64,000 nucleotides of DNA from an uncultured bacterium (GTDB lineage Bacteria > Armatimonadota > UBA5829). Shown piece after piece: positions 16,384-53,254 of the stretch (positions are counted from its first letter, which is position 1; the number at the start of each line of letters is the position of its first letter). The notes beneath the pieces were generated by a model. It ran no database searches. It was not told the origin of the DNA and was given only the letters and a program-made list of their open reading frames with translations. Both the position numbers and the translations under genes were made by a program. Where the stretch lies: the NCBI GenBank assembly GCA_938074205.1, contig CALJES010000012.1:278840-342839 (forward strand), given 5' to 3'.

Positions 16384-16722
16384 ACTCCTAAGAGTTTTAT
16401 TATGTGTTCGGCCGCCTTGACAGACGTGCTTGAGTCATCGACCTGTTCCCACTTACACAAAAATCATTGCTGAACCTTCAGAACACCAAGAAAACTTGCA
16501 CCCAGCGAATGGCCGAGCAAACGCGTCTTTGAGCCTTTCATTGGTAGGGCGATAAAGGTAACCATAACGTTCCAAGCCGCAGCCAGTCCCACTGCTGCAC
16601 CTAGTCCGGACCAACGTTTGAACTCGACAACCACCAGTTCTTGAGCATCATGCACCCGGATTGCTAGGGATTGCGGTTGTTGCAGTTCAGTGCTAGACTC
16701 ATAGCTACAAAGAACGAGGGCT

Positions 16723-19263
16723 GTGGGAATGGATTTAGTGCTTAGATTGTCACTTCTTCTTTTTTGTGTCTGCGGTGCGGTTAGTTTGACAGTGGCCGCT
16801 CGAGGGTCTGAGGATCTGTTGCGTTCGAATAAACTAAAATGGGTGGCGCCTGTCGAGGGACCTACTTGTGATTTGCAAGACGGATTAGCGATATTTCATG
16901 TACCCCAGGCTCAGGATGGGTACAACCACTGGGTAGACGGTGTTGCAAATTCTCCGTCCCTGAGAATGGAAGTACCCGAGGGCGACTGGGATCTCTCAGC
17001 AAAAATCGATCTGATCGACTTCACCCCAAACTCTAATTTCCACATCGGCTTGGTTGTAGGATTTGCAGACGCCTTTGTGATGATATTTGGACCTTTCCAG
17101 GGGCCAGCCGTTTGGAGTGATGGAAACTGGCCTGAACTGTGGATCGAGGCTACCGGTATGCCTGCAATATCGAGGACAAAGACGGATACCAAATCTTTAT
17201 ATCTCCAGATACGCAAGCGCCGAAATGAATATGCTTGCTACTACCGAACAGGCGAGGGCGGCGACTGGAAAAGATGCGGGGAATATCTAGGAGTATTCCC
17301 GCCGAGATTCGTCGGCGTGATAGGCAAAACATTCTCGAACGGCCCCGGTATTACTTTTTCGGTTCAACAACTGCGCATCGACAGGGCTTCGTCAGAGTCC
17401 AGAGACGCTCGCATATTTGTCCGTGCAGACACCATAAGTGGCCGCATAGACCGCAACATCTACGGCCACTTCATCGAGCATCTGAGCAGGTGCATTTATG
17501 GCGGGATATGGGCTGAAATGCTCTACAACCGCAAGTTTACCGGTGGCGTTGACGGCCAAGGCGTAATCGAGTCGTGGGCTGCATTTGGCGAGGGTGCAAA
17601 GTATTCGCGTGACAACATCGAGTTCTACACATCGTGCCAGTCGCAGAGGATCGAACTATCGCCGGGTAAGGAGGCAGGTATCGGCAAACGAGACGCAAAG
17701 CTGGCAATAAAGCCGCAGCGTTACGTAGTTAGAGCAGTGCTCAAACAGAGAGGCCTTTCGAACAGTGTAAGGATCGCTCTTCACCAGGGTAATCACGTCT
17801 ACGCAAGCGCGGTTATTCCTCGAGTAAGTGAGGAGTGGTCAGAATATACGGTGAATCTAGACGTCCAAGAGTCTGACCCTAACGCTCAATTCTCCGTTTC
17901 AGCCGCTGGCCCCGGCACGCTTTGGATTGGCTGCTTGTCTATGATGCCAGCGGACAACGTCGAGGGAATGCGCCGGGATGTTTTAGAAGCGATAAAGCGA
18001 ATTAAACCGCCGTTGATACGTTGGCCCGGCGGCAACATGGCCTCAGGTTACCATTGGGAAGACGGAATCGGCCCCAGAGACAAGCGCATGCCCAGATGGG
18101 AACGGGCGTGGAACGCCTGGGAATGGAACGACTTTGGGACGGACGAATACATTCGCTTTTGCAGGTTGGTCGGCACGGAACCTTATATCTGCGTGAACGC
18201 CGGCGAGGGTCAAGCCGACGAGGCAGCCAGGTGGGTGGAATACTGTAATGGCTCAGCGAACACGCCCTATGGTAGGTTACGAGCACTGAATGGACATCCC
18301 GAACCATATAGGGTTAAGTACTGGGGCATCGGCAATGAGATGTATGGCGATTGGCAGCTTGGCCACCTGGATGCCACAAAGTACGCCCTTAAGTCCATAG
18401 AGTTCGCGAGAGCCATGAAAGCGGTCGACCCTTCCATTGTTCTAGTAGGGGTAGGGGTGGATTACGACTCATTCGGCAATTGGAATTCCACCGTAGCCCA
18501 GATTGCCGGGAGCTATTATGACTACTTGTCAGTTCATTACTACAAGGGTCCAAGAGTAAAAGATCCTCAGGAACTAACTTATCTGAACCTAATCTGTGCC
18601 TCGCTTGAAATTGAAAAGATGCTCGCCGCAACGGCTGATATAGTTCAGCGCAGTTCACCAAAGAGACTGCCGCTGGCATTTGACGAGTGGAACATCTGGC
18701 TCCCTCATGGGCTGGAAAGCTCAATATATGCATTGCGCGACGGGCTTTTTGCTGCCGGAGTCTTCCACGCTCTGCACAGGCTTTGTGACCGCGTAACAAT
18801 GGCCAACTTGGCTCAGCTTGTAAACGTCCTCGGCGCGATTCAGACGAGCATGACCGAGCTGGTTGAGACGCCGATCTACAAAGCGTTTGAGTTGTATTCA
18901 AATCTGTGTGAGAACAACCGTGTTGAAGTAAAAGTCGAGTGCAACTCTTTCGACACGCCTGCTGGGCGGATGCCGGTGCTCGACGTTTCTGCCACAGTGA
19001 GTGACGATGGCAAGAAGCTCGTTCTGGCAGTGATAAACCGAGATCCGGTGTCGGATTACAGGACTACGATAAATATATCAGGGTTCAGTTCCAAGTCCCA
19101 AGCTCAAATCGCGGTGCTCAACGGGCCAACTGCATTCTCAGTCAATGACTTCGGCAAGCCTGACCATGTGACAATCACGCGCAGGAATGAGCCAATTGAT
19201 CTTACTAAGCCCTACTCGTTCCCAGCACATTCAGCGACGATTATGATCATGCAAGCTCGATAG
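16723..19263 (+). CDS. GH51 alpha-L-arabinofuranosidase with a roughly 400-aa N-terminal extension (signal peptide plus a lectin/CBM-like domain).
   Basis: GH51 signatures are 'IRWPGGNMASGYHWEDGIGP' and 'YWGIGNEMYGDWQLGH'. An N-terminal signal peptide is present. Confidence 0.75.
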   Translation: MGMDLVLRLSLLLFCVCGAVSLTVAARGSEDLLRSNKLKWVAPVEGPTCDLQDGLAIFHVPQAQDGYNHWVDGVANSPSLRMEVPEGDWDLSAKIDLIDFTPNSNFHIGLVVGFADAFVMIFGPFQGPAVWSDGNWPELWIEATGMPAISRTKTDTKSLYLQIRKRRNEYACYYRTGEGGDWKRCGEYLGVFPPRFVGVIGKTFSNGPGITFSVQQLRIDRASSESRDARIFVRADTISGRIDRNIYGHFIEHLSRCIYGGIWAEMLYNRKFTGGVDGQGVIESWAAFGEGAKYSRDNIEFYTSCQSQRIELSPGKEAGIGKRDAKLAIKPQRYVVRAVLKQRGLSNSVRIALHQGNHVYASAVIPRVSEEWSEYTVNLDVQESDPNAQFSVSAAGPGTLWIGCLSMMPADNVEGMRRDVLEAIKRIKPPLIRWPGGNMASGYHWEDGIGPRDKRMPRWERAWNAWEWNDFGTDEYIRFCRLVGTEPYICVNAGEGQADEAARWVEYCNGSANTPYGRLRALNGHPEPYRVKYWGIGNEMYGDWQLGHLDATKYALKSIEFARAMKAVDPSIVLVGVGVDYDSFGNWNSTVAQIAGSYYDYLSVHYYKGPRVKDPQELTYLNLICASLEIEKMLAATADIVQRSSPKRLPLAFDEWNIWLPHGLESSIYALRDGLFAAGVFHALHRLCDRVTMANLAQLVNVLGAIQTSMTELVETPIYKAFELYSNLCENNRVEVKVECNSFDTPAGRMPVLDVSATVSDDGKKLVLAVINRDPVSDYRTTINISGFSSKSQAQIAVLNGPTAFSVNDFGKPDHVTITRRNEPIDLTKPYSFPAHSATIMIMQAR

Positions 19264-19274
19264 CGCATAAATAT

Positions 19275-20966
19275 TTACCATGACGTGCCATACGGCCAGG
19301 CTGCCAAGCCGCCGTCAAGGAACCGTACGCGCGTGAAACCTTCTCCTTCTAGAATGCGCTGAGCCTCCCACGCACGCATACTGGTCTTGCAGAAGACTAC
19401 GATGTCCTTGTCGCGAGGCAGATCATCCATCCTTTCGCGCAGTTTGCCCAGGGGTATATGCACCACTCTATTTTCCCTAAAAGGTTGCTCTTCTACTTCG
19501 CCTGGCATCCGGACATCGAGAAGCACAAAGTCATCGCCTGCATCCAACCGACTCTTGAGCTCTTGCGGAGTGCAAGACTTGGCAAGCCCTGAAAGCTTAT
19601 TGTCTATAACATTTGCAGCGTGCTGGATTATGTCGACTGCGGTCGAGTAGGGAGGAGCGTAAGCAAGATCCAAATCTGAAACGTCCCTTGCGTCTATTCC
19701 AAAAGTGATGGCTGTTGCAGCAACATCTATTCGCTTGGCGACTTCGCCACGACCAAGCGCTTGCACGCCTAACAGTCTGCCATTCTCAGCATGCACGACC
19801 ATTTTCATAATCACAGGCTTGGACGTGGGGTAATAATGTGCGCAGTCCGGTCCTGGCACCAAAACTGTGATACATGGAATGCCGTGCTTCTTACAGTCAT
19901 TCTCTGAAAGGCCCACCTTTCCAACGTTGAATTCGAAGGCCTTGAAGACCACCGTGCCCAAAATACCCTCAAACCTAGTGTTGCCGCCGGTTATGTTATC
20001 TCCTATCACTCGGCCGTGCTTGTTGGCAGTTGAACCCATTGGAGCGTAGACGGGTTTGCCTGTTATAAGATGCACATTCTCTACGCAGTCTCCGCCGGCA
20101 TATATCGAAGGATCCGAGGTTTGGAGGTACTCGTTGACTTTTATACCTCCTGTTTCGCCCAGCTCGAGTCCGGCATCCTTTGCGAGCTTTACGTTGGGTT
20201 TAACACCTATGGACACGAGAACCAACTGCGCAGTGACTTTTCCCTTGTCGGTAACAACCTCACGAACTGCCCCGCGGTCGTCCGATTCGAAGCAGATTAC
20301 CTGTGTGTCTGTCAGCACGGTAACGCCTTTGGACTCCAGATGCCTCTGCAAATGTACGGCCAACTCAGGATCCAAAACAGCGGGGACAACCGTGGACAGC
20401 ATTTCGATCATTGTTACGCGCAATCCCTGAGAAGCAAGTGCCTCTGCGACCTCTACGCCGATGAGTCCTGCTCCAACGATTACTGCTTCTTTGCAGCCGT
20501 CAGAGATGGCTTTTCTGATACCTTCCGCATCATACGGATGATTCAACCGAAAAATGCCTTTCAGATCGACGCCGGAACACGGCGGTACTGCAGCATCCGC
20601 ACCGGTTGCTAGAACCAGTTTGTCGTAGGGAACCTCATGCCTCACTGCGGTCTCGAGCGATACCACCTCGACTACTTTTCTTTCTCGGTCGATGCGCTCT
20701 GCCAGCGTCCTGCTCATTACGTTTATCGCCTTGACCCCTTTGAAAAAGGCCTCGTCGCGAAGTGCTCCGGCGGGAGTCATCATAAGCTCGTCCATCGTTT
20801 CAACTTGACCCTGAATATAGTACGGCATACCGCAGCCGGCGTATGAGAGCAGGTCACCTCGTTCTATGATGGTGATGTCCGCGCTCGGATCACGTCGCCT
20901 GGCGCGAGCTGCTGCCTTCGGACCGCATGCTACTCCCCCGATAATCACTATTCTGTTCGTGGTCAT
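19275..20966 (-). CDS. CoA-disulfide reductase/NADH oxidase family flavoprotein with a C-terminal rhodanese domain.
   Basis: The FAD motif is 'IVIIGGVACGPKAAARA' and the redox Cys is in 'SYAGCGMPYY'. A C-terminal rhodanese domain reads 'FVLLDVRMPGE...CKTSMRAWEA'. Confidence 0.8.
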   Translation of the reverse strand: MTTNRIVIIGGVACGPKAAARARRRDPSADITIIERGDLLSYAGCGMPYYIQGQVETMDELMMTPAGALRDEAFFKGVKAINVMSRTLAERIDRERKVVEVVSLETAVRHEVPYDKLVLATGADAAVPPCSGVDLKGIFRLNHPYDAEGIRKAISDGCKEAVIVGAGLIGVEVAEALASQGLRVTMIEMLSTVVPAVLDPELAVHLQRHLESKGVTVLTDTQVICFESDDRGAVREVVTDKGKVTAQLVLVSIGVKPNVKLAKDAGLELGETGGIKVNEYLQTSDPSIYAGGDCVENVHLITGKPVYAPMGSTANKHGRVIGDNITGGNTRFEGILGTVVFKAFEFNVGKVGLSENDCKKHGIPCITVLVPGPDCAHYYPTSKPVIMKMVVHAENGRLLGVQALGRGEVAKRIDVAATAITFGIDARDVSDLDLAYAPPYSTAVDIIQHAANVIDNKLSGLAKSCTPQELKSRLDAGDDFVLLDVRMPGEVEEQPFRENRVVHIPLGKLRERMDDLPRDKDIVVFCKTSMRAWEAQRILEGEGFTRVRFLDGGLAAWPYGTSW

Positions 20967-21087
20967 CCTAACTATCCCCCATTTGACGTTCAGTTGGATA
21001 ATTATACTACCGCCTGTCTAGGCCGAATAATACCGCCGCAGGATTAGGAGCACCCGTCATAGAAGCACACATTGAGGTTACGCAAAT

Positions 21088-21699
21088 ATGGAAATACCGA
21101 GGGTTTTAGGCGAATTTGCCACTGTGGTGACCGCGTTGGTCATTGTTTTAGACCCGCTTGCCATAGTTCCCATACTCATAAGTCTCAGCTCTAACCACAC
21201 TCCCCGAGAAGGGCGTCGATTAGCTTACCGGATTGTTGCTGGCGCAACTGTACTACTACTATTTTTCACTGTGACCGGAACGTGGGTGCTGCAGCTGTTT
21301 GGCGTAACGCTCAACGATCTGCGTATCGGTGGCGGATTGCTCTTGCTCCTGATATCGCTCAAAATGGTTGTCGAGGGTCGAATCAGCCCGGGCAAGGAAC
21401 AAGACTACCGAGCAGCGATCGTGCCTCTAATCTCACCGCTTTTGGTCGGCCCGGGCGCAATTACAGCAGCAGTTGTATTGGCTGCAATGCACGGGGTTTG
21501 GTTCACCGCCGTGGCAGGATTGGTATCGATGCTGATCTGCCTTCTTATATTTCTGTCGGCTGGGTTTGTTCAGCGCGTGCTTGGAGAATCCGGAACGGAC
21601 CTCGTGACGCGGGTGATGGGCATACTTGTGGCAACCATTGCGGTGGGTTATATCCGCGAAGGCATATTCTCCAGCGTAAGGGATTTCAGAAAGCTGTAG
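21088..21699 (+). CDS. MarC/UPF0056 family integral membrane protein.
   Basis: The 203-aa product has 6 TM helices and the conserved 'DPLAIVPI' and 'LVGPGAITA' segments. Confidence 0.65.
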   Translation: MEIPRVLGEFATVVTALVIVLDPLAIVPILISLSSNHTPREGRRLAYRIVAGATVLLLFFTVTGTWVLQLFGVTLNDLRIGGGLLLLLISLKMVVEGRISPGKEQDYRAAIVPLISPLLVGPGAITAAVVLAAMHGVWFTAVAGLVSMLICLLIFLSAGFVQRVLGESGTDLVTRVMGILVATIAVGYIREGIFSSVRDFRKL

Positions 21700-21731
21700 A
21701 TAAAAATCGCTAGAATTCGCCCCTACTAACA

Positions 21732-22211
21732 GTGGAAGGGCACAGCTTGATGACCGACGATACTCAAAACTTGGTCCGCGTCGTATTAGACACAAATGTG
21801 TTTGTTGCTGCTTATTGGGCACCGTCAAGTGCGTCAGCTCAACTTATCCAAGCTTGTAGAAAGGGACTAGCTCGCGCCCAGTACTCCACTGAGGTTCGAG
21901 AAGAAGTCGAACGCGTGTTGCGGGCCATCAAAGCTAGACCCCAATTCGTTTATTCACTTGAAGCATTCTGGTCTGCTGCTGAGAAAGTCCGTGCAGTCAG
22001 CGTAGGTTCTGTCCGGGTGCCTGACCCCGACGACCAAAAGTTCTTGGAAGCCGCGGTTGGCGGGGCGAGTGACCTTTTGGTAACAAACGACAACCACCTA
22101 CTAAGCTTGAAATCCGTAGGCCGAACCGAAATAGTGACGCCGTCGACAGCGATGAAGATTGTTTGCCAAATATATCGCGTAGGACCGAGCCATCCTATTG
22201 GTCATAGTTGA
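21732..22211 (+). CDS. PIN-domain protein (putative toxin-type PIN nuclease, TIGR00305-like).
   Basis: Motifs 'VVLDTNVFVAA' and 'PDPDDQKFLEAAVGGASDLLVTNDNHLL...IVTPS' are present. Confidence 0.55.
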   Translation: MEGHSLMTDDTQNLVRVVLDTNVFVAAYWAPSSASAQLIQACRKGLARAQYSTEVREEVERVLRAIKARPQFVYSLEAFWSAAEKVRAVSVGSVRVPDPDDQKFLEAAVGGASDLLVTNDNHLLSLKSVGRTEIVTPSTAMKIVCQIYRVGPSHPIGHS

Positions 22212-22266
22212 ATAGACGTTGAGAGATAATTAAACTTGTATAAATTATGGAACTGGCTCTACCCGA

Positions 22267-25200
22267 ATGTTCAAACGGAATAAAGTGGCGAAGAAAATGG
22301 GTGCTCCAGCATTTTCCAATCAAGAAACGACAAGACGATTCATAGATAACTGTATCAGCGCATTGGAAGACGAAATCCAAGCCGCTGAACACACCGGAGG
22401 TTCCAAAAGGACAGTCGCACTAGCTAACGGACGCTTTCAAAGAACGATTGATCGAACTCATATATACGTGTTTGTAGCATCTGATGGCATGCCGCCGTCC
22501 TACGAAGATGCTCCTGTGCAAATATTGGTTTCAGGACAGGAGATAGACGGATCTGTTGTAGGCATAGAGGAGTTTGAGGTGATAATTGCTCTCGAAGAAT
22601 ACGTGGGAATGTACGTAGCTACAGCAGAACTCGTCGTCGACCTAACGTTCATACTTGAGAAGCTCAGAGAGCTTTTGACTGAGCGGGCCTCTGCTTTAGA
22701 GGTCCACGATGTAACCCTGAAAGTCTTTGGATTTGGTCAGCCACGTATCTCTTTAAGTTCTGCAAAACACCTTTCTGCTGACGAATGTTACATGAACGAA
22801 GCCCAGAAGCACGCATTGGGCAAGTGTCTAGGCAGCGACTTCGTAATGGTTTGGGGACCTCCCGGTACAGGAAAAACGCACGTTTTGGCGAGGGTTCTCG
22901 GCGAGCAGATTTTGCAAGGACAGTCCATTGCTCTACTCTCGAACACTAACATCGCTGTAGACCAAGCGCTTGAGCAGCTACTTAAACTCTGTGAAAATAA
23001 CGAAAGACTCAAGTGTTTGAAAGACGAAGGAAAGATAATACGCTTGGGCACACCTCAATTGGAAAGCGTCTTATCCATTACTCTCGATAGGATGGCTGAA
23101 CGCATAGCGTCCCAATTGAAAGACGAACTAACAAGGCTAAAGCGGCGCCGGGATAGACGAACTAAACGCTTGGAACAAGTGAGGTCGAGGATTAAAAGGC
23201 TTAGGGAATTGCTGGAGTTACATCGTAGACTCAATGAAGTAGTGGACTCGGAAAAACGCATTGCCCACGAGCTGAAAAAAGTGTGCCACCAATACCACGT
23301 GCTTGCAGACGAGCTTCTTGCGCTAAATTTGCGACTGTCCGTCATCCAAAAAAGGCGCCGCCTGCTACGCCTGATATACAGGTCCAAACAGCGCCGCTTG
23401 GAGCAGCTCGTGACTCAAAAAGAAGAGGGTTGCAGAAAAATAAACGAGAATATGCGTAAGTTAACCGAAAAAGTCTTGGCTCACCGCGCTGAGGTCGAAA
23501 AACTTCGCCAACGGATGGCCACCTTGACAAATGGCGTAGTCGATCCAGCGAAATGGGAAACCTGTCTGGCTCGGCTTACAAGTCTTGAGACGAGGCTACA
23601 AAATGAGATGGCCATCTTCGCAGCGAGAATCCACGAGCTTGAAATCGCTCTCCAGACAGTTGAAGCAAGAATTCTTAACGAGGCTCTCCTTGTAGGGTGT
23701 ACCTGCGCTAAGAGCACCCTCGACGTTAATGTCAGTAGCCGTAGGTTTTCAACGGTGGCTGTAGATGAATCCAGTATGGTCTCCCTTCCGCAAACACTCT
23801 GGTGTACGAACTTGGCTAATAAAAGGTTCCTTTGTTTTGGGGACTTTCGCCAGTTGCCACCGATCACCTTGATCAAACCAGATTCTGGGCAGGAGTCATA
23901 TGAGATCATGCATAGTAGCATATTCGAAAGACATCGGTTGGGCGAGAGTTTACAGGACGCCCTTGGGGATCCGCGGGTAGCTTTGCTAAATGAACAATAT
24001 CGTATGAATCCAGAAATATGTGAGCTCGTGAACAAATGGATGTATGGGGGCCGCTTGATTACGGTACCTGGGACCGGCTGCGGAGCTATGCTGTCCCAGG
24101 ATCCACCTCTTGCACTGGTTGACACGTCGTTATTTGGTGCATGGAGCGACAAGAACGCGGATTTTTCGTGGTACAATTGGCACCACGCATTTGTGGTGCT
24201 GGAACTCGTGCGAGAATTGAGAAATGATTCAGGTGCCCAGGCAGATCAAGGTGCGCTAGTGCTGATACTTACGCCGTACCGCGCTCAGGTTCGCCTAATT
24301 CGAGCATTGCTGGAAGAAGCAGACCTTCAAGAGAACGCGAGAGTATCAACCGTCTGGGGTTGCCAAGGAACAGAAGCAAGCGTTGTCATATTTGATACCG
24401 TGTGTGCCCCTCCGTACAGCAAACCGGGACGATGGTTTCTGCATGAACCGGGGCCAGCGGACGGTGCCAGGTTAATTAACGTCGCCATAACAAGAGCCAA
24501 GGACAAGTTGTATATAGTGGGGCATAGGCAGCACCTTGTGCGGAGCTGCCCATCAACCGCGTTCATAAGGAAAATTCTGGATTGCTTAATCGCAAATGAC
24601 CATATTATCGATTCACGGGAAATCGCGAAAAACTTGATACCGGAAGAACCAGCCGACGATGGTGGCTTTCCTATTGGCGCATTTGGGACTGCCTCGTTCA
24701 AGTTGTTCGACCAAGAGACGTTTCTAGAGGCGTTTATAAGCGATCTTTGTCAACTTCCGCCAGGATCGCGGATAACCATCTTCCGGCCGTTCTTAAGTGG
24801 GGAATCCTTTGCACGTTGCAAGTCGCATTTTTGCACATTGCTCAAAAATGGCTGCAGCATCGAGCTATTTACACGAGATCGCTCTGCGCAGAACAGGGGC
24901 AGGCCACTCGACGCTGTCGATTCTATGATTGATGAGCTGGAAAGATTGGGGGCAAAGGTTGGGATAGATTCGTATCTGCGGGGCCAAAGATTCGAGCACC
25001 ACAAGTTGGCTTTTCTCGAGTACCCGCAGGAATCAGACCGAAGAAGCGAACCTGTTATCTGGATCGACAGCAAAAGGATTCTTGGTCACCGCTCTGGTTG
25101 GGAGACTATGCTGCGAATTCAGTCGCGCAATGTGTACAGCGTCTTTGCGAGTATCATCGGTTTAGAAGACCGGCGCAAGCACGTACCAGTACACGTTTTG

Positions 25201-25521
25201 ATAAGCAAACTGGAGAACACACTTCAGCGACAGCTGCAAGCAATTTGTCCTGTTCACAAATTACACATGAAGCTTCGTTTCTCGGTTAGAAGTAGTAAAA
25301 AGTCATTTTTTATGTGTTGTCCTACGTGGAGCAAAAGCAGATGTGACCAGAAGATGAATGTGTCGGTTGAAGAGCTTAACAAAGCTCTGGAGTTCATTCG
25401 GGCGACGTGCTTGGAACCCGGCTGCGACGCTCCGTTGGATGCAAGACGAGGTCGTGAAGGCATATACATAAGGTGCTCCGAAGGACACTATGTCCCCCTT
25501 ATTTCATACTTCCGTAGATAA
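22267..25521 (+). CDS. Upf1-like (DNA2/NAM7) SF1 helicase with a roughly 250-aa coiled-coil insertion and a roughly 330-aa C-terminal region with an HxK motif and a Cys/His cluster.
   Basis: Helicase motifs are I 'GPPGTGKT', II 'VAVDESSMV', III 'GDFRQLPPI', IV 'LNEQYRMNPEI', V 'ILTPYRAQV' and 'VWGCQGTEASVVIFD', and VI 'INVAITRAKDKLYIVG'. A heptad-rich Arg/Leu/Glu segment sits between motifs I and II. The C-terminal region contains 'FEHHKLAFLEY' and 'CCPTWSKSRC...CLEPGC...CSEGH'. Confidence 0.7.
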   Translation: MFKRNKVAKKMGAPAFSNQETTRRFIDNCISALEDEIQAAEHTGGSKRTVALANGRFQRTIDRTHIYVFVASDGMPPSYEDAPVQILVSGQEIDGSVVGIEEFEVIIALEEYVGMYVATAELVVDLTFILEKLRELLTERASALEVHDVTLKVFGFGQPRISLSSAKHLSADECYMNEAQKHALGKCLGSDFVMVWGPPGTGKTHVLARVLGEQILQGQSIALLSNTNIAVDQALEQLLKLCENNERLKCLKDEGKIIRLGTPQLESVLSITLDRMAERIASQLKDELTRLKRRRDRRTKRLEQVRSRIKRLRELLELHRRLNEVVDSEKRIAHELKKVCHQYHVLADELLALNLRLSVIQKRRRLLRLIYRSKQRRLEQLVTQKEEGCRKINENMRKLTEKVLAHRAEVEKLRQRMATLTNGVVDPAKWETCLARLTSLETRLQNEMAIFAARIHELEIALQTVEARILNEALLVGCTCAKSTLDVNVSSRRFSTVAVDESSMVSLPQTLWCTNLANKRFLCFGDFRQLPPITLIKPDSGQESYEIMHSSIFERHRLGESLQDALGDPRVALLNEQYRMNPEICELVNKWMYGGRLITVPGTGCGAMLSQDPPLALVDTSLFGAWSDKNADFSWYNWHHAFVVLELVRELRNDSGAQADQGALVLILTPYRAQVRLIRALLEEADLQENARVSTVWGCQGTEASVVIFDTVCAPPYSKPGRWFLHEPGPADGARLINVAITRAKDKLYIVGHRQHLVRSCPSTAFIRKILDCLIANDHIIDSREIAKNLIPEEPADDGGFPIGAFGTASFKLFDQETFLEAFISDLCQLPPGSRITIFRPFLSGESFARCKSHFCTLLKNGCSIELFTRDRSAQNRGRPLDAVDSMIDELERLGAKVGIDSYLRGQRFEHHKLAFLEYPQESDRRSEPVIWIDSKRILGHRSGWETMLRIQSRNVYSVFASIIGLEDRRKHVPVHVLISKLENTLQRQLQAICPVHKLHMKLRFSVRSSKKSFFMCCPTWSKSRCDQKMNVSVEELNKALEFIRATCLEPGCDAPLDARRGREGIYIRCSEGHYVPLISYFRR

Positions 25522-25540
25522 GTGTGACCTTTTCTGCATG

Positions 25541-27004
25541 TTACTCGGACGAATTCGCCAACAGCTCGCATATCTTGTTCTGCACAGCCGTTGCAGCGCT
25601 ATTTGGGCAAGGGTGGTTGTTCATCAGTATGGAGAATACCAGCGGTTCGCCGGACTTTGTTGTGAGGTAACCTGAGAGACTGCTTACTCTGCTTAAATAC
25701 CCCGTTTTTGCGCGAACGTTGTTCTCCGCAGACGTGCCCTTCATCCTATTCTTCAGAGTGCCGTCTACGCCGGCCAACGGTAGCGAATCTATGAACGCAC
25801 GGGCATGCGGATGACGATACATATGACTCAAAAGCTCAACCAAGCTCCTCGCGGTCACACAGTTCAGCCTGGAAAGACCCGACCCGTCGGCTATATAAAT
25901 GCCGCCGAGGTCAATGCCTATCTGAGTCATGAATTCCTTCTCGACTTCACGGCCGCACTCAGCTGAGCCCTTTCCCTTAACAAATGCGCCCAGCGTTTTT
26001 AGAAGAATCTCAGCTATGAGGTTGTCGCTGGGCTTGTTGAGAAGCTCGAGAATTTTCGATAACGGTGGGGAAACATGCTCGCACAGCAACGTTGCATCGC
26101 TCGGAATTTTGCCGCGTTTAACTTCACCCTCCACTACTATGCCCTGCTTGTGAAGTTCATTCTTAAACACGTGACCAGTGTAAAGAGCCGGCTCGTGAAT
26201 GGTAATAATCGCTTCCGAGGCAGTAACTTTCGTCCCCACAGGTATGCTACCGCCCGCTCGGATTATATTGGTGCCCAGAACCCTATAGACCCAGACGGTT
26301 TTCTGTGAATCGGTCTCTCCTGTTATCGGACAGCTCTCAATCTGCAAGAACGAGTTGACGGGATCCAGTTGCACGATTGCTGGATCCCCAGGTTTCTTGC
26401 CAGGGTAGACCCACACGTTTACGACGTTTCGGTTAAGGTTCAGCGCAGTTATCTCTGCTGAGTAGTAATAACACAGGTCGTTCCACGGCCAACCTGTTCC
26501 AAGCCGACAGTCATCAAATAGAGAATCGTCCACGATCAAATCACCCGTTACCTTCTTGATGCCCTGGGTTTTCAGTTTTTGGGCCATCTCCACCAGATCG
26601 TTGGTTTCCAGGGTCGGATCGCCGCCGCCCACTAACGCAATAGAACCCTTGACCAAACCGTGTGGGTTCACTGGCGCGCATGTAAACACCTTGGTGACGT
26701 ATGTAAAATCCGGCCCCAGGCGGTCAAGCGCGGCAGCAGAGACTAGGAGCTTCATATTTGAAGCCGGGATCATAGCCAGATCAGCATTCCGTTCATACAG
26801 GGTTTTGCCAGTCTGCAGAGATTTTACCAAGACTGCTTGGATGCCGTGATTTAGGTTCGGATCGGCGAGCATTTGATCGATCTGGTGATGCAGACTATTT
26901 GCTTGTGCATAAGTCGCAATCCAAACCGCGAGAATGCACCATAGGAGTACTAAGCGCGCCCTGCGATACGAGACTGCTGATAGTCTTCGATTGCTCCTGT
27001 TCAT
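25541..27004 (-). CDS. dacB: D-alanyl-D-alanine carboxypeptidase/endopeptidase (peptidase S13, PBP4/DacB).
   Basis: A signal peptide is followed by the S13 active-site region 'PASNMKLLVSAAAL' (SxxK). Confidence 0.8.
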   Translation of the reverse strand: MNRSNRRLSAVSYRRARLVLLWCILAVWIATYAQANSLHHQIDQMLADPNLNHGIQAVLVKSLQTGKTLYERNADLAMIPASNMKLLVSAAALDRLGPDFTYVTKVFTCAPVNPHGLVKGSIALVGGGDPTLETNDLVEMAQKLKTQGIKKVTGDLIVDDSLFDDCRLGTGWPWNDLCYYYSAEITALNLNRNVVNVWVYPGKKPGDPAIVQLDPVNSFLQIESCPITGETDSQKTVWVYRVLGTNIIRAGGSIPVGTKVTASEAIITIHEPALYTGHVFKNELHKQGIVVEGEVKRGKIPSDATLLCEHVSPPLSKILELLNKPSDNLIAEILLKTLGAFVKGKGSAECGREVEKEFMTQIGIDLGGIYIADGSGLSRLNCVTARSLVELLSHMYRHPHARAFIDSLPLAGVDGTLKNRMKGTSAENNVRAKTGYLSRVSSLSGYLTTKSGEPLVFSILMNNHPCPNSAATAVQNKICELLANSSE

Positions 27005-27526: not shown

Positions 27527-28099
27527 TCAGCTGCGTCGCTCTCTTACGGGCCCAAGGGATATGTCTATGTCATCAGTCAGAAGCTCAGAACCACTCTGTC
27601 GCGCCTGGATCTCACCGCGCCTAGAATCCTCAACTGTCAGCAGGATAGAGCGTGTTCCTAAAGGAAACGATTTTTGATTTCGGCGCGCCCAAGCCGCAGC
27701 ATCTTTGTTTACGGGGCTTGCCAAGTTGTAGCTTTTGTACTGGATCATATCGGCGATGTGAACAATGACATCTACCAAAGTAACACCAGGAGACCAGTAA
27801 TCGCCTATGCAGACGTAATCTCCTATGTTCGGGTGCCATATCGGGGTGCGCATCGTGCATCTTGGACCCTGCCTCGGGTAACCGGTCGACAGTACTATAT
27901 CCACAACGTGCTTCTCTGACACCACAGCTCTACTCGATGCCTCATCCCAAACAAGTCCCGTCAGCCTGTAAGTAACTCGGTAATACCAAGGCGGGTTACC
28001 CTGAATCGGTTCTACACACACAAACTCGTTGCCGGAAAGTTCCGATAAGATCTTTTCGTATTCGCGACGCAGACGCCTTGTCCGAATTGTCTCGCTCAC
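27527..28099 (-). CDS. Prokaryotic ubiquitin-conjugating enzyme (E2/UBC fold) homolog.
   Basis: The UBC signature is 'RLRREYEKI...YPRQGPRCTMRTPIWHPNIGDYVCIGDYWSPGVTL'. This gives the HPN motif, a candidate catalytic Cys 7 residues later, and WSP. Confidence 0.75.
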   Translation of the reverse strand: MSETIRTRRLRREYEKILSELSGNEFVCVEPIQGNPPWYYRVTYRLTGLVWDEASSRAVVSEKHVVDIVLSTGYPRQGPRCTMRTPIWHPNIGDYVCIGDYWSPGVTLVDVIVHIADMIQYKSYNLASPVNKDAAAWARRNQKSFPLGTRSILLTVEDSRRGEIQARQSGSELLTDDIDISLGPVRERRS

Positions 28100-28114
28100 G
28101 ATACCGCACCTGCC

Positions 28115-29536
28115 TCACTTTGGCTTTCCCAGACTTGCGCAGATACGCTTGACCTTCCGCCGGTCGCTTTCAGACAGCGCATGGAAAAGTCTGTCATACG
28201 GCTCTTCGCGACAGATCACTCCGTAAGCTATCTCCCGACTTCGTTCACCGCGTAGCCACCGAACAGCTTTCTCATGCCAAGCGTTCGAACCATGCTCGTC
28301 ATGAACAGCTACGCTTAGCTTCAGCGACCGCACAATGTCCCTTACGCGGCAGGCTCTCTCGATCCGCTTCTCACGGCTTGCAGCCGCCCGCTTGTAGACT
28401 TGGAGGGCTTGTTTAACGTAGTCCGGCGAGGCTACAATAATATCAGGTCGACGACTATTGGATGTGAATGAGCTTTCTATGTCTTTCACCAGCGACGGTT
28501 CCTGCGCCCGCGGTAGCTGCCGGGCGAGACGCGCCGCTGCAGCTAACTGCAAGTTGATTCTATCGAGCTTTTCACCCTCTTCGTTGCCAATTTCGCTATC
28601 GGACAGCGCCGCGCTTACACGCTGAAACTCCAAAAACGCTTGTCGGTTTTCCGGGTTAGCTGAAAGTTCGAGCCTAAGCAACCTCTCACCGCCTGTAAGA
28701 TCACCTATCGAAAGCATTTCAATAGCGGTTTCCAGGTACGTAGTAGGATGTGTTGCCTGCCTCCCGCGGAAAACGACAAGCCACAAAGCGATCTGCGAAG
28801 CCGCCAATAGTATAATTAGTGACCAGATAATCCCAGGAACTCTACCGACGTTAAGGCGATTATTCATTTGTGCTGGTCCTCTAGCCGTGACCGTGGAATG
28901 ATCTGACGTTGCAGATAGCTCCCTCATACATTCCCGCAGTGCTTCTTCATTGCTGCGTGGGGCGAATACATAGAATCCGGAAATGCGTACAAGAGACTCC
29001 TGCGACCACTCAAAAATAGCCCATTCGCCCAACTTGGAGTCGACAACCATCGCTATCTGGTAGGAATCAGCGAAGTAGTGCTGGTGAATGAATTCGTCTT
29101 CCTTGGAAAGAAACGCTCCTAGCCCTGGGTGGCTGTGATACCAACCAACGATTCTCTCGCGTGAGTACCGCTGGGCAAGCTGCGCGTGCACCTGCTCCCA
29201 AGCCTCGTGGGTGAAAGTGAGCGATATACCGGTGCTTTCGGCCATCTCTGCTCGGATAATGTCGTTGACCTGAATAAAGTAACCCCTGCCAAACTTGCAG
29301 AACTCGCCTACCAACACTCCGCCGAGCTCACGCTCCGGATCTGCGAGAAGATGTTCCCTAATTGCCCGGACAGCTTGTTCACTGATGAAAACGGGATACA
29401 AATCATCGGCCGGCTGACCGCACGCGCAAACTCTCATCGCCCTGTTTTCAAGTGGGCTCTTTCTTTTGACGGCAGATAAGCGAGTTGACCTGCCTAGCTC
29501 CAGTTGTATGTCGTCGTTCTCTTCTTCGCGCTGCAT
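28115..29536 (-). CDS. JAB/JAMM (MPN+) metallo-isopeptidase with a TM helix and a roughly 220-aa C-terminal extension.
   Basis: JAMM motifs are 'ELGGVLVGE', 'HSHP' and 'SKED'. The predicted TM is 'VPGIIWSLIILLAASQIALWLVVF'. Confidence 0.75.
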   Translation of the reverse strand: MQREEENDDIQLELGRSTRLSAVKRKSPLENRAMRVCACGQPADDLYPVFISEQAVRAIREHLLADPERELGGVLVGEFCKFGRGYFIQVNDIIRAEMAESTGISLTFTHEAWEQVHAQLAQRYSRERIVGWYHSHPGLGAFLSKEDEFIHQHYFADSYQIAMVVDSKLGEWAIFEWSQESLVRISGFYVFAPRSNEEALRECMRELSATSDHSTVTARGPAQMNNRLNVGRVPGIIWSLIILLAASQIALWLVVFRGRQATHPTTYLETAIEMLSIGDLTGGERLLRLELSANPENRQAFLEFQRVSAALSDSEIGNEEGEKLDRINLQLAAAARLARQLPRAQEPSLVKDIESSFTSNSRRPDIIVASPDYVKQALQVYKRAAASREKRIERACRVRDIVRSLKLSVAVHDEHGSNAWHEKAVRWLRGERSREIAYGVICREEPYDRLFHALSESDRRKVKRICASLGKPK

Positions 29537-29554
29537 ACTCTCGAATGTGTCGAT

Positions 29555-30061
29555 TCAGATCACAAGCCGGATCAAGAAGACGATCCCGCTTGAGCTGATA
29601 CTGAAGAGCACAACCGCTGGTCCAAAGCAGTTTTCGAAAAAGCGGTTTTCCCTAGCTGTGAAACGACAGTGCACACAAATGATCTGATTCTGCTTCACCG
29701 GTCTTCCGCACTTTATGCACCGCAGAGGCTGATCACTTTCGTCTGTCAGGTCTGTAGGCGCAATGACAATACGGCCCTCTGCAGTAGGCGAAATGCGATC
29801 AGAGATCTGCCGGTTCCATATTGCCCAACCGTCGCAGCCGTATACAGAGCAGCGGCCGTTGGACTTCCAGCACTCAGCATGATGCATTACGCCGCACTTG
29901 GGACAGCGTATCGCTTCTTCTTTCGATTCGATCGGACTTAGACAGTATGGGCAGTTCAGGCTTTCGTTTGTTGATCTCACCTTTCCACTCGATCGAACGC
30001 TTTGGGTAGTTGGTCTATGGTATCGAGGCTGCCGGTAGGAACCGCCGCCACTATCAGCCAA
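29555..30061 (-). CDS. Membrane-anchored C4HC3 RING-variant-like zinc-finger protein (paralog 2), with a second CxxC...CxxC ribbon and a C-terminal TM.
   Basis: Cys/His spacing is 'CPYC..(13)..CPKCGVMHHAECWKSNGRCSVYGC', then 'CIKCGRPVKQNQIICVHC', then the hydrophobic tail 'AVVLFSISSSGIVFLIRLVI'. The 5' end overlaps the upstream paralog by 85 nt, so the true start may be internal or non-ATG. Confidence 0.5.
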   Translation of the reverse strand: MADSGGGSYRQPRYHRPTTQSVRSSGKVRSTNESLNCPYCLSPIESKEEAIRCPKCGVMHHAECWKSNGRCSVYGCDGWAIWNRQISDRISPTAEGRIVIAPTDLTDESDQPLRCIKCGRPVKQNQIICVHCRFTARENRFFENCFGPAVVLFSISSSGIVFLIRLVI

Positions 30062-30459
30062 GCTAACAGAACTGCTGAGACGAGCAACATAATCAGTATA
30101 GGTCCCACGTTCTTTGCGTCCTGGTGTTCTAGGATAGATGTGGGCCTACACGTATTGCAGTAGAGTTCCCCTGGAGGAACCTGCTTCCCGCAGTGCACAC
30201 ACGGGTTGGAAACGCTCATCGCTTTTCTGTTACTTGCAGATTCGACTGCCTCACGCGTTAGAAGGAGTCTACTCCTTGCCGGTGGTGTATCGAAGTTGAT
30301 TTCGATTATCCGTCTTGCTTTGGGACATTCCTTTGCACAGCAGCCGCGGTGCTCTTCCCAACAATCGAAGTGATACACCGAGCCGCATGCGTCGCAGGTC
30401 ACAGTTTTTTCCTGCAGGGCAATTTCGCTCATACAATAGCGACAACTTCTGTCTGCCAC
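29977..30459 (-). CDS. Membrane-anchored C4HC3 RING-variant-like zinc-finger protein (paralog 1).
   Basis: Cys/His spacing is 'CRYC..(12)..CDACGSVYHFDCWEEHRGCCAKEC', then 'CVHCGKQVPPGELYCNTC', then the TM 'ILIMLLVSAVLLAWLIVAAV'. Confidence 0.55.
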   Translation of the reverse strand: MADRSCRYCMSEIALQEKTVTCDACGSVYHFDCWEEHRGCCAKECPKARRIIEINFDTPPARSRLLLTREAVESASNRKAMSVSNPCVHCGKQVPPGELYCNTCRPTSILEHQDAKNVGPILIMLLVSAVLLAWLIVAAVPTGSLDTIDQLPKAFDRVER

Positions 30460-30509
30460 TTCTGCTCACGTGTTAAAGTCGTTTGCTACGCGCCGCGCAA
30501 GCTATTCTC

Positions 30510-31721
30510 TTACGAACCCGGCAGTACGGATTTGGCATCTGATGATATCTCAATCTGCACGCAGCCTCTTTGCGATACCGCAGGAAGAATCTCCAATTGA
30601 CCAAAACCAAGCTCTTTTAGTGTGATATCTTCGTAGGGCGCGCCGCGCATATACTCGACATCTACTTCCGGCAGTCGCTCTGCGCCGCAGTCGGGACATC
30701 TTGCCTCTTCAGCGCGGATGCTATGTGCCAATCGGTAGAACGGTTGCGTGGAGCCACACCGATTGCACTTAAGTGATTTTACCATCTCAGAAGGTAGACC
30801 AATCACAGGGTTTGCACCCACGTAACGTGTTGCGAGATCCGCAACCTCAGCCAGCGTTGCTGATTCGCTGTTGAGCTGGGTTTCTACGATGTTTTCGAAC
30901 AACTCGTGGCTCATGCAGTCTTCGTTTCTCACGTAGTCAATAATGAAGCAGTCGTAGGTTGTGGCGTCAAAGTAGAAAGCCTTCCCGACCAGGGTAGGGC
31001 TCAGCCTCTGTCCTGGCGTTTGCAGGCAGGAGCGCGAGTGCAAGAGCTTTACGGCTTCGTGTACCTGGATGCCGGCTATTATGGATGCCATTGTAGGCGT
31101 CGTAGGAGTCCTGTCTTGAATATGAGCTTGAGCTGCCAGGATACCGCACGACTCACGCCACGCCATAATTTTTCTGTCCTGTTCGCCGAGCGTACACTCG
31201 TAGCAAGGGGTATCTGGGGGCACGAAGCTGCGCACAATACCGCGAGTGTCATCGACCGCTCCATCTACCCAGGGTGTGCCAACCTTCCAGCAAGCTCGGT
31301 TGATTGCAAGCCGCGCCTCACGGTTATCCAGTCCGCCGATCACGACATCCACGCGCCTGAAAATGCCAAGACCGATGTCCCTAGTTACATCAGCCTCCAG
31401 GCCGATGAACCGGCAGTCAGGATTCAGCGCCTCAGCTGCGCTCGCCGCTACTTGGGCTTTGGGCTTGCCTTCGTCTTGGGCTCTGAATAATGGACTTCGC
31501 GAAAGGTTGGAGAGCTCAACACGATCGAAGTCGACTATGATCACCGTCCCTGCGCCCAATAGTGCAAGGTTCTTTATTATCTCATTGCCAAGCGCACCGG
31601 CTCCAACGACCATGATTGATGCGGCGCGTAGGACGTCTTGGTTCCACCAGGAGATCAAGCGTAAACGCCAATATCGATCTTCTCCGATGTCAATCGGGAA
31701 GTGGGATTTCTCAGCAGACAC
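30510..31721 (-). CDS. E1-like adenylating enzyme (ThiF/MoeB/UBA family) with a C-terminal zinc-ribbon extension.
   Basis: The nucleotide-binding motif is 'VVGAGALGNEIIKNLALLGAGTVIIVDFDRVELSNLSRS'. CxxC is 'CYEC', and a later ribbon reads 'CNRCG...CPDCG'. The gene overlaps the Ubl gene by 11 nt. Confidence 0.8.
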   Translation of the reverse strand: MSAEKSHFPIDIGEDRYWRLRLISWWNQDVLRAASIMVVGAGALGNEIIKNLALLGAGTVIIVDFDRVELSNLSRSPLFRAQDEGKPKAQVAASAAEALNPDCRFIGLEADVTRDIGLGIFRRVDVVIGGLDNREARLAINRACWKVGTPWVDGAVDDTRGIVRSFVPPDTPCYECTLGEQDRKIMAWRESCGILAAQAHIQDRTPTTPTMASIIAGIQVHEAVKLLHSRSCLQTPGQRLSPTLVGKAFYFDATTYDCFIIDYVRNEDCMSHELFENIVETQLNSESATLAEVADLATRYVGANPVIGLPSEMVKSLKCNRCGSTQPFYRLAHSIRAEEARCPDCGAERLPEVDVEYMRGAPYEDITLKELGFGQLEILPAVSQRGCVQIEISSDAKSVLPGS

Positions 31722-31998
31722 AAAAGCACCCGCCTGCGGTGATCTCAGGTATTAGTCTGAGAACGTCCCCGTCTAGGACGTTGCATTCTGAAAGCGTGAG
31801 ATTGTCCAGCAAATGCCTGCCGGTTCCTTTGTGCAGGAGTTTGTAAGAAATCGGCGCGCCTGCGGTGTTGACCACTGGTAGGTAAAGAACCTCGACTAGT
31901 TTGTCAATAATTCTACTGATAGGCACGTCGTCTGGGAGCGTCGCATCTTGTTCTTTGCTTCCCGTTACGTCTATGATTGTGACGTTAACCTTACCCAT
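31711..31998 (-). CDS. Ubiquitin-like beta-grasp protein (95 aa) ending in ...AGG followed by a CFCVC tail.
   Basis: The beta-grasp pattern is 'KVNVTIIDVTGSKEQDATLPDDVPISRIIDKLVEVL...GDVLRLIPEITAGG'. A penultimate diglycine precedes a 5-residue Cys-rich extension. It is the first gene of the operon and overlaps E1. Confidence 0.6.
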   Translation of the reverse strand: MGKVNVTIIDVTGSKEQDATLPDDVPISRIIDKLVEVLYLPVVNTAGAPISYKLLHKGTGRHLLDNLTLSECNVLDGDVLRLIPEITAGGCFCVC

Positions 31999-51032: not shown

Positions 51033-52290
51033 TCTGCTTTACAACTGGCAGGTGCCCTATCGCATCCAGCGCGGCTCTCATACTCGGCTCCGGAGCTTCA
51101 TGGGTAAGCCAGACAATTTCCGCGCAAGAATCGGGAAGCACGTGTTGCAGTACCGATTCTATAGACACGTCATAGTTAGCGAACTCTGCTGCGATGGCTG
51201 CAAGTACCCTGGGCTTGTCCTCGGCAATTATTCTGACATAGTTCCGGCAGCTCACGCTTTCCATCCCAAGCATGGGCAGCTGGTCAAAACATGTACACGG
51301 CACGCGTCCGGTGGCACCCATGTTTATGTTGCGGGCAATGTCAATTATGTCGCCCACTACTGCGCTGCCTGCTGCCTCACTGCCAGCACCTCTACCGAAG
51401 AACATCACCTCGCCGACTGCGCTCCCGCGTACAAATATCGCGTTATATACGCCATGAACGTGCGCCAACGGATGAGTCTTCGGCACAAATGCAGGGTGGA
51501 CTCGCACCGACATTCCATCGCTGAACTTTTTTGCGATTGCAAGAAGCTTCACTGCAAATCCGAGCTGATCGGCATAATTAAGGTCGTCGGCAGTTATCTC
51601 CCTGATACCTTCACGGTAAACAGCCGTAACATCTGCTCTGCTTGTAAACGCGATCGATGCGAGGATTGCTATCTTGTACGCCGCGTCGTGTCCGTCGACG
51701 TCGCTTGTAGGGTCGGCTTCCGCATAGCCTTTTTCTTGTGCTTGACGCAGCGCCTCCACAAACGATATCCCCTCGTCTTTCATTCGGGTCAAGATATAGT
51801 TGGTGGTGCCGTTTACTATGCCCTTAATCTCGAGTATTTCGTTTCCCGCTAGACACGTCTTGAGGGGCCGGATTATAGGGATCCCGCCGCCGACAGAGGC
51901 TTCGAACATCAGGTCGCGCTTCAACTGAGAGGCTAGCGGAAACAGATTTGCGCCTTCCTTGGCAATGAGCTCCTTGTTTGCGGTCACTACGTGCTTTCCG
52001 AATTCAAGCGCGCGCTTGATGTAGTCGCCAGCTGGGCTCACACCCCCTATGACCTCGACAACTATATCGATCTCCGGATCGTTGAGGATATCATCAGCGT
52101 TCGTAGTAAGCAGCGATGGATCCATGGATACCGATCTCGGTGTAGTTATGTCTAGGTCCGCAATGCGCTTTATGACGAGTCTAGATCCGACTTTGCGAGC
52201 TATTGAATCAGCATTTTCGGACAGCAGTTTGACTGTCCCGACTCCAACTGTCCCGAAACCTATGATTCCGACGTTGATAACTTCCTTCAC
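51004..52290 (-). CDS. hom: Homoserine dehydrogenase with a C-terminal ACT domain.
   Basis: The Rossmann motif is 'INVGIIGFGTVGVG', and the gene is adjacent to thrC. Confidence 0.85.
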   Translation of the reverse strand: MKEVINVGIIGFGTVGVGTVKLLSENADSIARKVGSRLVIKRIADLDITTPRSVSMDPSLLTTNADDILNDPEIDIVVEVIGGVSPAGDYIKRALEFGKHVVTANKELIAKEGANLFPLASQLKRDLMFEASVGGGIPIIRPLKTCLAGNEILEIKGIVNGTTNYILTRMKDEGISFVEALRQAQEKGYAEADPTSDVDGHDAAYKIAILASIAFTSRADVTAVYREGIREITADDLNYADQLGFAVKLLAIAKKFSDGMSVRVHPAFVPKTHPLAHVHGVYNAIFVRGSAVGEVMFFGRGAGSEAAGSAVVGDIIDIARNINMGATGRVPCTCFDQLPMLGMESVSCRNYVRIIAEDKPRVLAAIAAEFANYDVSIESVLQHVLPDSCAEIVWLTHEAPEPSMRAALDAIGHLPVVKQIGSRIRVED

Positions 52291-52793: not shown

Positions 52794-53208
52794 ATATGTA
52801 CCACCTACATGCAAAAACAGAAGGACGGACCCACTTCCGCCCTCCTGGACGTTACGTTCCCTCGGCAACAGCTAGTATAACATTGGCCAACTTATGCGTC
52901 AACTTACCTACGGGCTAGTCAGGACGGGTTATTATATTGCGGGTTTGGAGTGTAACAATCTTCGAGATAGCACATCGCAAGCTACCTAAGCTTCCATTGA
53001 GTCTGAGGATCTCAATTATAGCGAAGACGACAAGTTCATGGATTACACCGTTTAGATGTATGATGATCGCTTGGAGCTTTTGTCTTGATTCCCTGAGTGC
53101 AGGTCAATACTTGTAAGACGGCCGGGTCTGTTGTGCTGGGCTGCAGTTCTTCAGATCTTAATCCCCTATCGGGAATTTGGTGTTTTCAGACCGTCTGCAC
53201 ACCGTCAG

Positions 53209-53254
53209 TTGACTCTAGGGGCTTTCAAGGATACACTGCAAAAAATGGTATAAC
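53209..53254 (+). promoter_or_regulatory. Two overlapping candidate promoters for the C1 peptidase gene: TTGACT-N17-TACACT and an extended -10 TGgTATAAC.
   Basis: I read ttgact at 53209-53214, tacact at 53232-53237, and tggtataac at 53246-53254. Confidence 0.35.

Follow-up and report, generated by a model that had tools for sequence, protein, structure and literature searches.

In type II Mokosh, one gene encodes an N-terminal COG1112/Upf1-like helicase together with a C-terminal phospholipase D (PLD) nuclease, and mutations of the Mokosh helicase ATP-binding domain and PLD active site are reported to have abolished defence (Millman et al., 10.1101/2022.05.11.491447). Type I Mokosh consists of two genes, MkoA, a helicase that carries a Ser/Thr kinase domain, and MkoB, a PLD nuclease (10.1101/2022.05.11.491447), and YjhR of Escherichia coli K-12 has been described as a fused MkoA-MkoB Mokosh, with a parallel drawn to MOV10L1 and PLD6 (Cury et al., 10.1101/2022.12.12.520048). 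Here we compare with these systems a locus in a 64,000-nucleotide (nt) stretch of DNA from an uncultured bacterium of the Armatimonadota (contig CALJES010000012.1, positions 278,840 to 342,839), which we call the window and in which a PIN-domain gene is followed, on the same strand, by a gene for a protein of 1084 amino acids (aa). A preliminary description, made from the letters of the window, had taken the two genes for a candidate defence or RNA-surveillance module. Judged from comparisons of sequence and gene order, the locus is rather made of two unrelated things, a resident PIN gene linked to the membrane protein gene MarC and an inserted segment with a single gene, whose product is probably a Mokosh-II-like helicase-nuclease in one polypeptide, acquired by insertion and a candidate for phage defence.

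Three further systems are relevant for comparison. The ATP-dependent type IV restriction enzyme SauUSI has an N-terminal PLD domain, an SF2 motor and a domain that reads modified DNA, whereas the window protein combines a Upf1-like motor of the SF1B type with zinc ribbons and a PLD domain at the C-terminus. Nhi has an SF1 Upf1-like helicase, and its nuclease is an N-terminal domain with a restriction-endonuclease fold, not a PLD domain. In Hachiman a nuclease, HamA, and a helicase, HamB, are separate proteins that form a complex. Nhi and Hachiman both combine a nuclease with a helicase for defence, as the window protein may do, and neither of them uses a PIN domain; the likeness to them that had been suggested for this locus does not agree with these domain types, and no PADLOC match to Nhi or Hachiman was returned for the helicase protein.

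The helicase-nuclease protein

The gene is an uninterrupted open reading frame (ORF) of 1084 codons at 22267-25521 (+), which starts 55 nt downstream of the PIN gene (gap 22212-22266), as previously described. The ATG at 22267 adds about 10-20 residues that are absent from homologs, and the ATG at 22297 (M11, MGAPAF...) fits the N-termini of the homologs slightly better; no clear Shine-Dalgarno sequence was seen for either start.

The protein matches the Pfam families AAA_11 (1e-28) and AAA_12 (9e-33), as well as the IGHMBP2-family model TIGR00376 (9e-54), the latter with 183 bits, which is under the 348.9-bit cut-off of that model. Its sequence relatives in the PDB are Sen1, Ighmbp2, Upf1 and Dna2, and the top Foldseek matches in the PDB are Senataxin, Dna2, Ighmbp2 and Upf1. 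These results identify the protein, at the level of sequence, as a Upf1-like SF1B helicase with intact ATP-site motifs, in agreement with the preliminary description. The AlphaFold2 (AF2) model of the full-length protein has a pLDDT of 83.8, and shows in the N-terminal region (aa 1-170; 22267-22776, +) a long helix, a beta-barrel (aa 47-125) and connecting helices. Y67, F69, D81 and G95 of this region are invariant across the family alignment, and Foldseek aligns the protein with Ighmbp2 and Upf1 over about 810 columns; we infer that the region would correspond to the 1B barrel and stalk of Upf1-like helicases. The first part of RecA1 (domain 1A; 22777-23061, +) carries the Walker A motif GPPGTGKT (22855-22878; aa 197-204), and is followed by a coiled-coil insertion of about 200 aa (23062-23682, +), modelled as helices 273-362, 368-421 and 427-463, which occupies the position of Upf1 domain 1C and is found in 15 of the 15 aligned family members. 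Weak matches to SMC, LmuB and JetC are due to this coiled coil. The rest of RecA1 and RecA2 (23683-24546, +) contain VDESSM (23761-23778), GDFRQLPP (23839-23862), QYRM (23995-24006) and NVAITRAK (24478-24501), and the GPPGTGKT, motif II DESS, GDFRQLPP and NVAITRAK sequences are all intact. A match to the NCBIfam model "PLuB system helicase-like protein" (1e-27) lies far under the cut-off of that model, and a literature search for "PLuB" gave irrelevant papers; this lead was dropped.

The last ~275 residues form a PLD-fold domain and two zinc ribbons. The PLD-fold, nuclease-like domain (aa ~811-965; 24697-25161, +), for which the AF2 model is confident, has its HxK motif at H911-H912-K913 (24997-25005). 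In a 15-sequence alignment H911 and K913 occupy the HxK columns of the PLD signature, with S935 in the Ser column of GSxN, and these three residues are conserved across both 15 and 30 family members. Between the two motifs the close clade carries an extra insertion of 9-12 residues. Thus, the nuclease that belongs to this helicase is, by sequence, fused within the same protein as its PLD domain. The two zinc-ribbon modules (25246-25488, +) use C994, H997, C1018 and C1026, and C1048, C1053, C1070 and H1074, respectively, and are of the topoisomerase-type Zn-ribbon class, appearing in the models as pairs of beta-hairpins. The six cysteines in the last 90 residues are invariant in the 15-sequence alignment. 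The Pfam match to Zn_ribbon_Top1 is weak (E 0.01), and was the only one obtained when the N-terminal 176 aa and the C-terminal 313 aa were searched alone against Pfam and PADLOC.

Among 5.8 billion proteins searched, only 6-7 homologs reach 38-44% identity, all of them metagenomic. The next tier consists of full-length relatives at 25-29% identity, for which precomputed Pfam assignments give AAA_11/AAA_12, PLDc_2 and Zn_ribbon_Top1. The best PADLOC profile matches of the window protein are MkoA (2e-61 and 1e-40) and MkoC (4e-32), which are raw profile scores and not calls of the tool. In the wider family alignment MkoA and MkoC are matched by 30/30 sequences, MkoB by 17/30 and DrmC by 9/30.

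The likeness to type II Mokosh lies in the one-gene organization, with a Upf1-like COG1112 SF1B helicase followed by a C-terminal single-HKD PLD-fold domain, and in the stand-alone occurrence of the gene, with no conserved partner. In the yjhR translation a PLD domain (RVHSKIVIED...GSFN) comes after the end of the helicase, and both this domain order and the layout "ITI.SP.LS ... HxK ... GSxN" match those of the window protein family. In pairwise BLAST only the helicase end of the window protein aligns with YjhR (2e-9); hhalign of the C-terminal profile of the clade against the PLD part of YjhR places HxK and GSxN in register (E 1.7e-4, probability 50%). There are also differences. The window protein is at most ~30% identical to the detectable relatives that bear PLDc_2, and the two zinc ribbons are absent from the YjhR remnant of E. 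coli K-12. A ~200-aa coiled coil lies in RecA1, and the match to MkoA takes up 604 residues of the protein for 489 model positions, about 115 residues more than the model spans. The Asp of the HKD signature is lost in the window clade and GSxN in the window copy, which neither PLDc_2 nor MkoB recognises. With type I Mokosh the protein shares the helicase family (MkoA, 2e-61) and the nuclease superfamily, but it is fully fused and has no kinase domain. MOV10L1 and Zucchini/PLD6 of the animal piRNA pathway are separate eukaryotic proteins with extra domains, PLD6 being membrane-anchored, and no piRNA-like pathway is implied here. In our view, the sequence evidence places the protein most probably near type II Mokosh, as supported by gene number, helicase type and PLD fold, and it appears set apart from the known comparands by the zinc-ribbon tail, the long coiled coil, the divergent PLD motif and the host phylum. 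Thus, the earlier suggestion of a defence candidate holds for the helicase alone, through its MkoA and MkoC matches, and not for a PIN-helicase pair, against which gene order speaks (see below).

The inserted segment

The flanks of the two genes were as previously described: a gene for a MarC-family membrane protein lies upstream of the PIN gene (21088-21699, +; Pfam MarC 1.7e-37), outside the inserted element, and the dacB gene (peptidase S13; 25541-27004, -; Pfam 6e-127) is convergent with the helicase gene and forms the right flank of the insertion. The closest relative of this genome at the locus is GCA_029907315.1 (locus L073), in which the genes have the same order as in the window, namely arabinofuranosidase, a pyridine-nucleotide-disulfide oxidoreductase with a rhodanese domain, MarC and PIN, followed by dacB, with no helicase and only 29 nt between the PIN and dacB stops. 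A further lineage (L076-L078) has the order MarC-PIN-dacB, likewise without the helicase, and there PIN abuts dacB. By blastn, L073 aligns with window positions 16690-22159 at 75% identity and with 25614-26893 at 73%, and between these blocks there are 128 nt in L073 vs 3455 nt in the window. As two independent outgroup lineages have PIN abutting dacB, the gain of the helicase in the window lineage is the parsimonious reading.

The extra segment spans ~3.4 kb (22164-25540, with boundaries placed to about 20 nt), and comprises a new PIN tail, an AT-rich leader and the helicase-PLD gene. It lies precisely between the stop region of PIN and the stop of dacB, and its insertion rewrote the last ~15 PIN codons. 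DNA similarity to L073 stops at 22159, so that the left junction lies inside the last codons of the PIN gene. The last 15 of these (22164-22208, CQIYRVGPSHPIGHS) are unique to this genome and have no counterpart in any ortholog; with the insertion, the PIN gene appears to have exchanged its original C-terminus and stop codon for new ones. On the right, the junction alignment places the border within ~20 nt past the helicase stop. Only short, chance-level direct and inverted repeats were found at the borders, with no terminal repeats or target duplication.

The composition of the segment is also atypical. The helicase gene has a GC content of 0.488, the lowest of the 44 ORFs of the window (z = -2.9), and the 3377-nt segment 22164-25540 has 0.485, whereas every block of the same size elsewhere lies at 0.505-0.549. 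Only 4 of 135 comparison blocks have a greater tetranucleotide distance than this segment, measured against the rest of the window. The AT-richness of the intergenic region and of the start of the helicase gene, which had been noted by eye, is confirmed by calculation (GC 0.345 for 22212-22266 and 0.427 for 22150-22449). The 55-nt leader (22212-22266, +) contains a weak sigma-70-like element, TTGAGA-16 nt-TAAATT (22219-22246), and as a possible promoter of the helicase gene it is only suggestive, because shuffled sequence is expected to give matches just as good; the promoter and terminator scan as a whole likewise gave nothing better than shuffled sequence.

Site presence and absence together with composition therefore identify 22164-25540 as an acquired segment, which is not the case for the PIN gene, whose overall GC matches that of the genome (z -0.8). 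The horizontally acquired island that had been proposed for both genes is thus retained for the helicase segment, atypical in GC and absent in relatives, and not for the syntenic PIN gene. The preliminary description had named, as grounds for abandoning its proposal, the occurrence of the helicase without PIN in conserved core synteny combined with a composition like that of the flanks. We do find the helicase without PIN, and PIN in core synteny, but the helicase is a GC outlier.

Proposed action and competing explanations

By analogy with Mokosh and related enzymes, the protein could act alone as an effector against phages or mobile elements. The helicase would load on single-stranded phage RNA, on RNA/DNA or on single-stranded DNA replication intermediates, and would translocate 5'->3' driven by ATP, while the zinc ribbons might help to grip the nucleic acid. 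In PLD nucleases with a single HKD motif, for example Nuc and Zucchini, each active site is assembled from two copies. For this reason we propose that the PLD domains of two protomers, perhaps joined via the coiled coil, would come together to cleave the strand being threaded.

Several results weigh against a phage-defence nuclease of the Mokosh type. The whole close clade lacks the Asp of HxK(x)4D, having R, E or N instead, and DSKR is found in the window protein only, with GS[ML]N in 14 of the 14 other aligned sequences; for the window copy neither Pfam PLDc_2 nor PADLOC MkoB reaches its threshold, and the nuclease of this copy may, on its sequence, be impaired. The best-scoring stretch for MkoC covers positions 770-1074 of the 1136 of the model, in its C-terminal part, and MkoA scores higher. 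No integrase, tRNA or flanking repeats were found at the junctions. Among five distant-relative loci, only one lies beside a recognisable defence system, that of a Nanopelagicales metagenome-assembled genome (MAG; L032 2472-10688), where the helicase-PLD relative comes directly after the genes of a type I restriction-modification system (HsdS-like and HsdR; PADLOC E = 0); this comparison covered 10 large flanking ORFs from four loci, searched against PADLOC, and the precomputed Pfam context of P0008. The closest homologs, at five loci, have a single defence-type gene in their vicinity, which encodes a TIR-domain protein and lies ~8 kb away, in L002. Finally, tblastn gave no match to phage records and, against plasmids, only matches to the helicase core with coverage of at most 53%, and the only matches in IMG/VR were limited to the N-terminal helicase core around Walker A.

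The first alternative is that the gene is a decaying or nuclease-dead Mokosh-II-like copy, either non-working or acting through its helicase only, for instance by stalling or remodelling without cutting. In the sequence HHKLAFLE a Glu stands where the Asp of the HKD motif is expected, and WIDSKR (25060-25077) takes the place of GSxN, so that within the signature D is changed to E, G to D and N to R; across 30 sequences, G934 and N937 show a conservation of at least 90%. In Nuc, BfiI and Zucchini the Asn of the motif contacts the scissile phosphate, and in the window protein cutting may be weakened or lost because the Asp and the GSxN of the signature are gone. In addition, one member of the clade is split into ORFs of 707 aa and 330 aa (L006 2502-5678 and L007 2489-5665) by a frameshift in the NVA.TRA motif region, a split common to two independent assemblies (JGI and ENA), which suggests that the clade tolerates loss; it reflects a true pseudogene or else an error that both assemblies have in common. 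The position of the frameshift, within the conserved NVA.TRA region, led us to reject a type I-like arrangement for this pair of ORFs. On the other hand, the window ORF is uninterrupted, its helicase motifs, His/Lys dyad, S935 and all zinc ligands are kept, its PLD domain is confidently modelled, and the absence of the Asp from the whole clade means that this change, at least, is tolerated. We consider a dead or decaying copy unlikely.

Equally improbable in our assessment is a housekeeping enzyme for RNA turnover, for the resolution of R-loops or replication intermediates, or for repair, in the manner of Dna2, Senataxin and Ighmbp2. The closest solved structures, those of Senataxin, Dna2, Ighmbp2 and Upf1, are indeed cellular helicases that process RNA or DNA, there is no flanking mobile-element signature at the window locus, and the close homologs and P0008 lie among ordinary genes (MutS, ThiC, URO-D, DnaB and ribosomal proteins). 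However, these neighbourhoods vary, and among the 16 best-matching homolog loci no neighbour is conserved, except between two closely related Frankiaceae genomes. A housekeeping gene would be expected to be syntenic and widespread in its clade, whereas this one is sparse and patchy, with the few close homologs given above, is missing from the same locus in the nearest relatives, is an outlier in composition and has defence models as its best profile matches.

A further proposal, which we regard as tentative and put below the two preceding ones, is that the clade made of the window protein and its 6-7 metagenomic homologs could be a distinct Mokosh-like subtype. Its distinguishing features are the loss of the Asp (here also of GSxN), the 9-12-residue insertion between HxK and GSxN and the CHCC + CCCH zinc ribbons. 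If this were so, the C-terminus might be a nucleic-acid clamp or sensor, or might use an altered chemistry, and the coiled coil would drive assembly, in a helicase-centred effector logic not yet described for Mokosh.

Under the reading that we favour, a single-polypeptide Mokosh-II-like helicase-nuclease gained by insertion, the locus would hold a divergent and rare type II Mokosh relative in the Armatimonadota, a phylum with, to our knowledge, little experimental work, and one whose PLD active site is naturally eroded. A variant that keeps the His and Lys without the Asp and GSxN, and has zinc ribbons and a coiled coil, could help to separate the roles of helicase and nuclease.

The MarC-linked PIN gene and other features of the window

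The PIN gene (PIN_3/TIGR00305; 21750-22211, +) encodes 153 aa from the ATG at 21750, with the frame open from the GTG at 21732 (159 aa); the ATG is favoured by the gene callers on the same contig and by the ortholog alignment. Its assignment to the TIGR00305 type is upheld (4.7e-12, with 46.2 bits for a cut-off of 29.15), and Pfam PIN_3 is matched with 8e-19 and 69 bits. The orthologs form a rich set at 50-78% identity, the named sources being Armatimonadota MAGs, and D14, E52, D92/D95 and D114 are invariant in their alignment. In three Armatimonadota lineages, L073, L074/L075 and L076-L078, MarC is directly upstream of the PIN orthologs (57-78% identity). The MarC-PIN pair extends over 21088-22211 in the window, 9342-10429 in L073, 9332-10411 in L074 and 9400-10426 in L076, where the two genes overlap by 11 nt; in L074/L075 the pair is followed by a histidine kinase gene. 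PIN homologs at the greater distance of 41-45% identity stand alone, and no MarC or helicase gene adjoins them.

TIGR00305 is a family of "putative toxin-antitoxin toxins", and the window PIN scores above the cut-off of the model with its acidic catalytic residues conserved. Unlike a mobile toxin of this kind, it has no antitoxin, occurs clade-wide at 50-78% identity and has a fixed synteny with MarC. That no antitoxin gene lies beside it had already been noted; we found no antitoxin-like ORF of at least 20 aa around PIN, no antitoxin gene in the orthologous loci, where MarC and PIN are directly followed by the next gene, and no RNA in an Rfam scan of 20.5-27.5 kb. A VapC-like type II toxin-antitoxin module was rejected for this lack of an adjacent small antitoxin ORF or Rfam RNA. 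This behaviour appears closer to that of a resident cellular gene than to that of a mobile toxin, and we conclude from the comparison of loci that PIN belongs to the resident core genes of this Armatimonadota clade and is coupled to MarC, without being a partner of the helicase. A member of a family annotated as toxins is thus seen here as a resident cellular gene tied to a membrane protein.

As PIN is resident and coupled to MarC, its adjacency to the helicase is a by-product of where the 3.4-kb segment landed. A PIN profile built from the orthologs, which detected PIN in 8 of 8 loci where it was expected, found it in 0 of 71 loci encoding relatives of the helicase, and none adjoins the helicase at the five inspected loci of the closest homologs; co-occurrence in other genomes, which had been suggested as a check, was not seen at any other locus. 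Two ORFs upstream of close homologs, of 130 aa and 210 aa, were considered as partners and rejected, one having no similarity to PIN or to any Pfam family and the other being a fragment of URO-D. Thus, the co-transcribed module first proposed, with PIN as the effector and the helicase as sensor or motor in defence or RNA surveillance, is very improbable: the shared strand and 55-nt gap with no convincing terminator, the intact catalytic acidic residues of a PIN without antitoxin, the frequency with which nucleases and helicases are paired in defence systems in general, and the possible read-through transcription that follows from an insertion touching the PIN 3' end all favour it, but PIN follows MarC in three lineages with no helicase nearby, its distant homologs are also solitary, its GC is that of the genome and that of the helicase is not, the helicase carries a nuclease domain of its own, and the adjacency occurs in one genome only. 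In a weaker variant of the subtype proposal given above, the insertion, by rewriting the tail of an active orphan PIN, could have created a new functional coupling in this one lineage. By synteny, the nuclease and helicase genes side by side on one strand, which gave the impression of a new two-gene system for defence, are a chance juxtaposition.

Beyond dacB, the window contains a ubiquitin-like conjugation cluster (27527-31998, -), in the place of which L073 has an H+-pyrophosphatase gene following dacB. It comprises an E2 (UQ_con; 27527-28099, -), a JAB/MPN protease (28115-29536, -), two overlapping Prok-RING_1 ORFs (29555-30061 and 29977-30459, -), which the gene caller on the same contig gives as one 151-aa gene, a ThiF-type E1 (30510-31721, -), with weak PADLOC matches to the E1-E2 and BilD models, and a YukD-like ubiquitin-fold protein (31711-31998, -). 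By sequence comparison the cluster looks like a second lineage-specific insertion flanking dacB, and the presence of such insertions on both sides of this gene suggests a local hotspot for accessory genes; the cluster may be a more interesting target than the helicase-PIN finding. The strongest tetranucleotide outlier region of the window is at ~52000-56400. Next to a homoserine dehydrogenase gene, at 53279-56284, lies the gene for a 1001-aa papain-family (Peptidase_C1) protein with lectin-like and BACON domains, which is probably just an unusual secreted protein gene.

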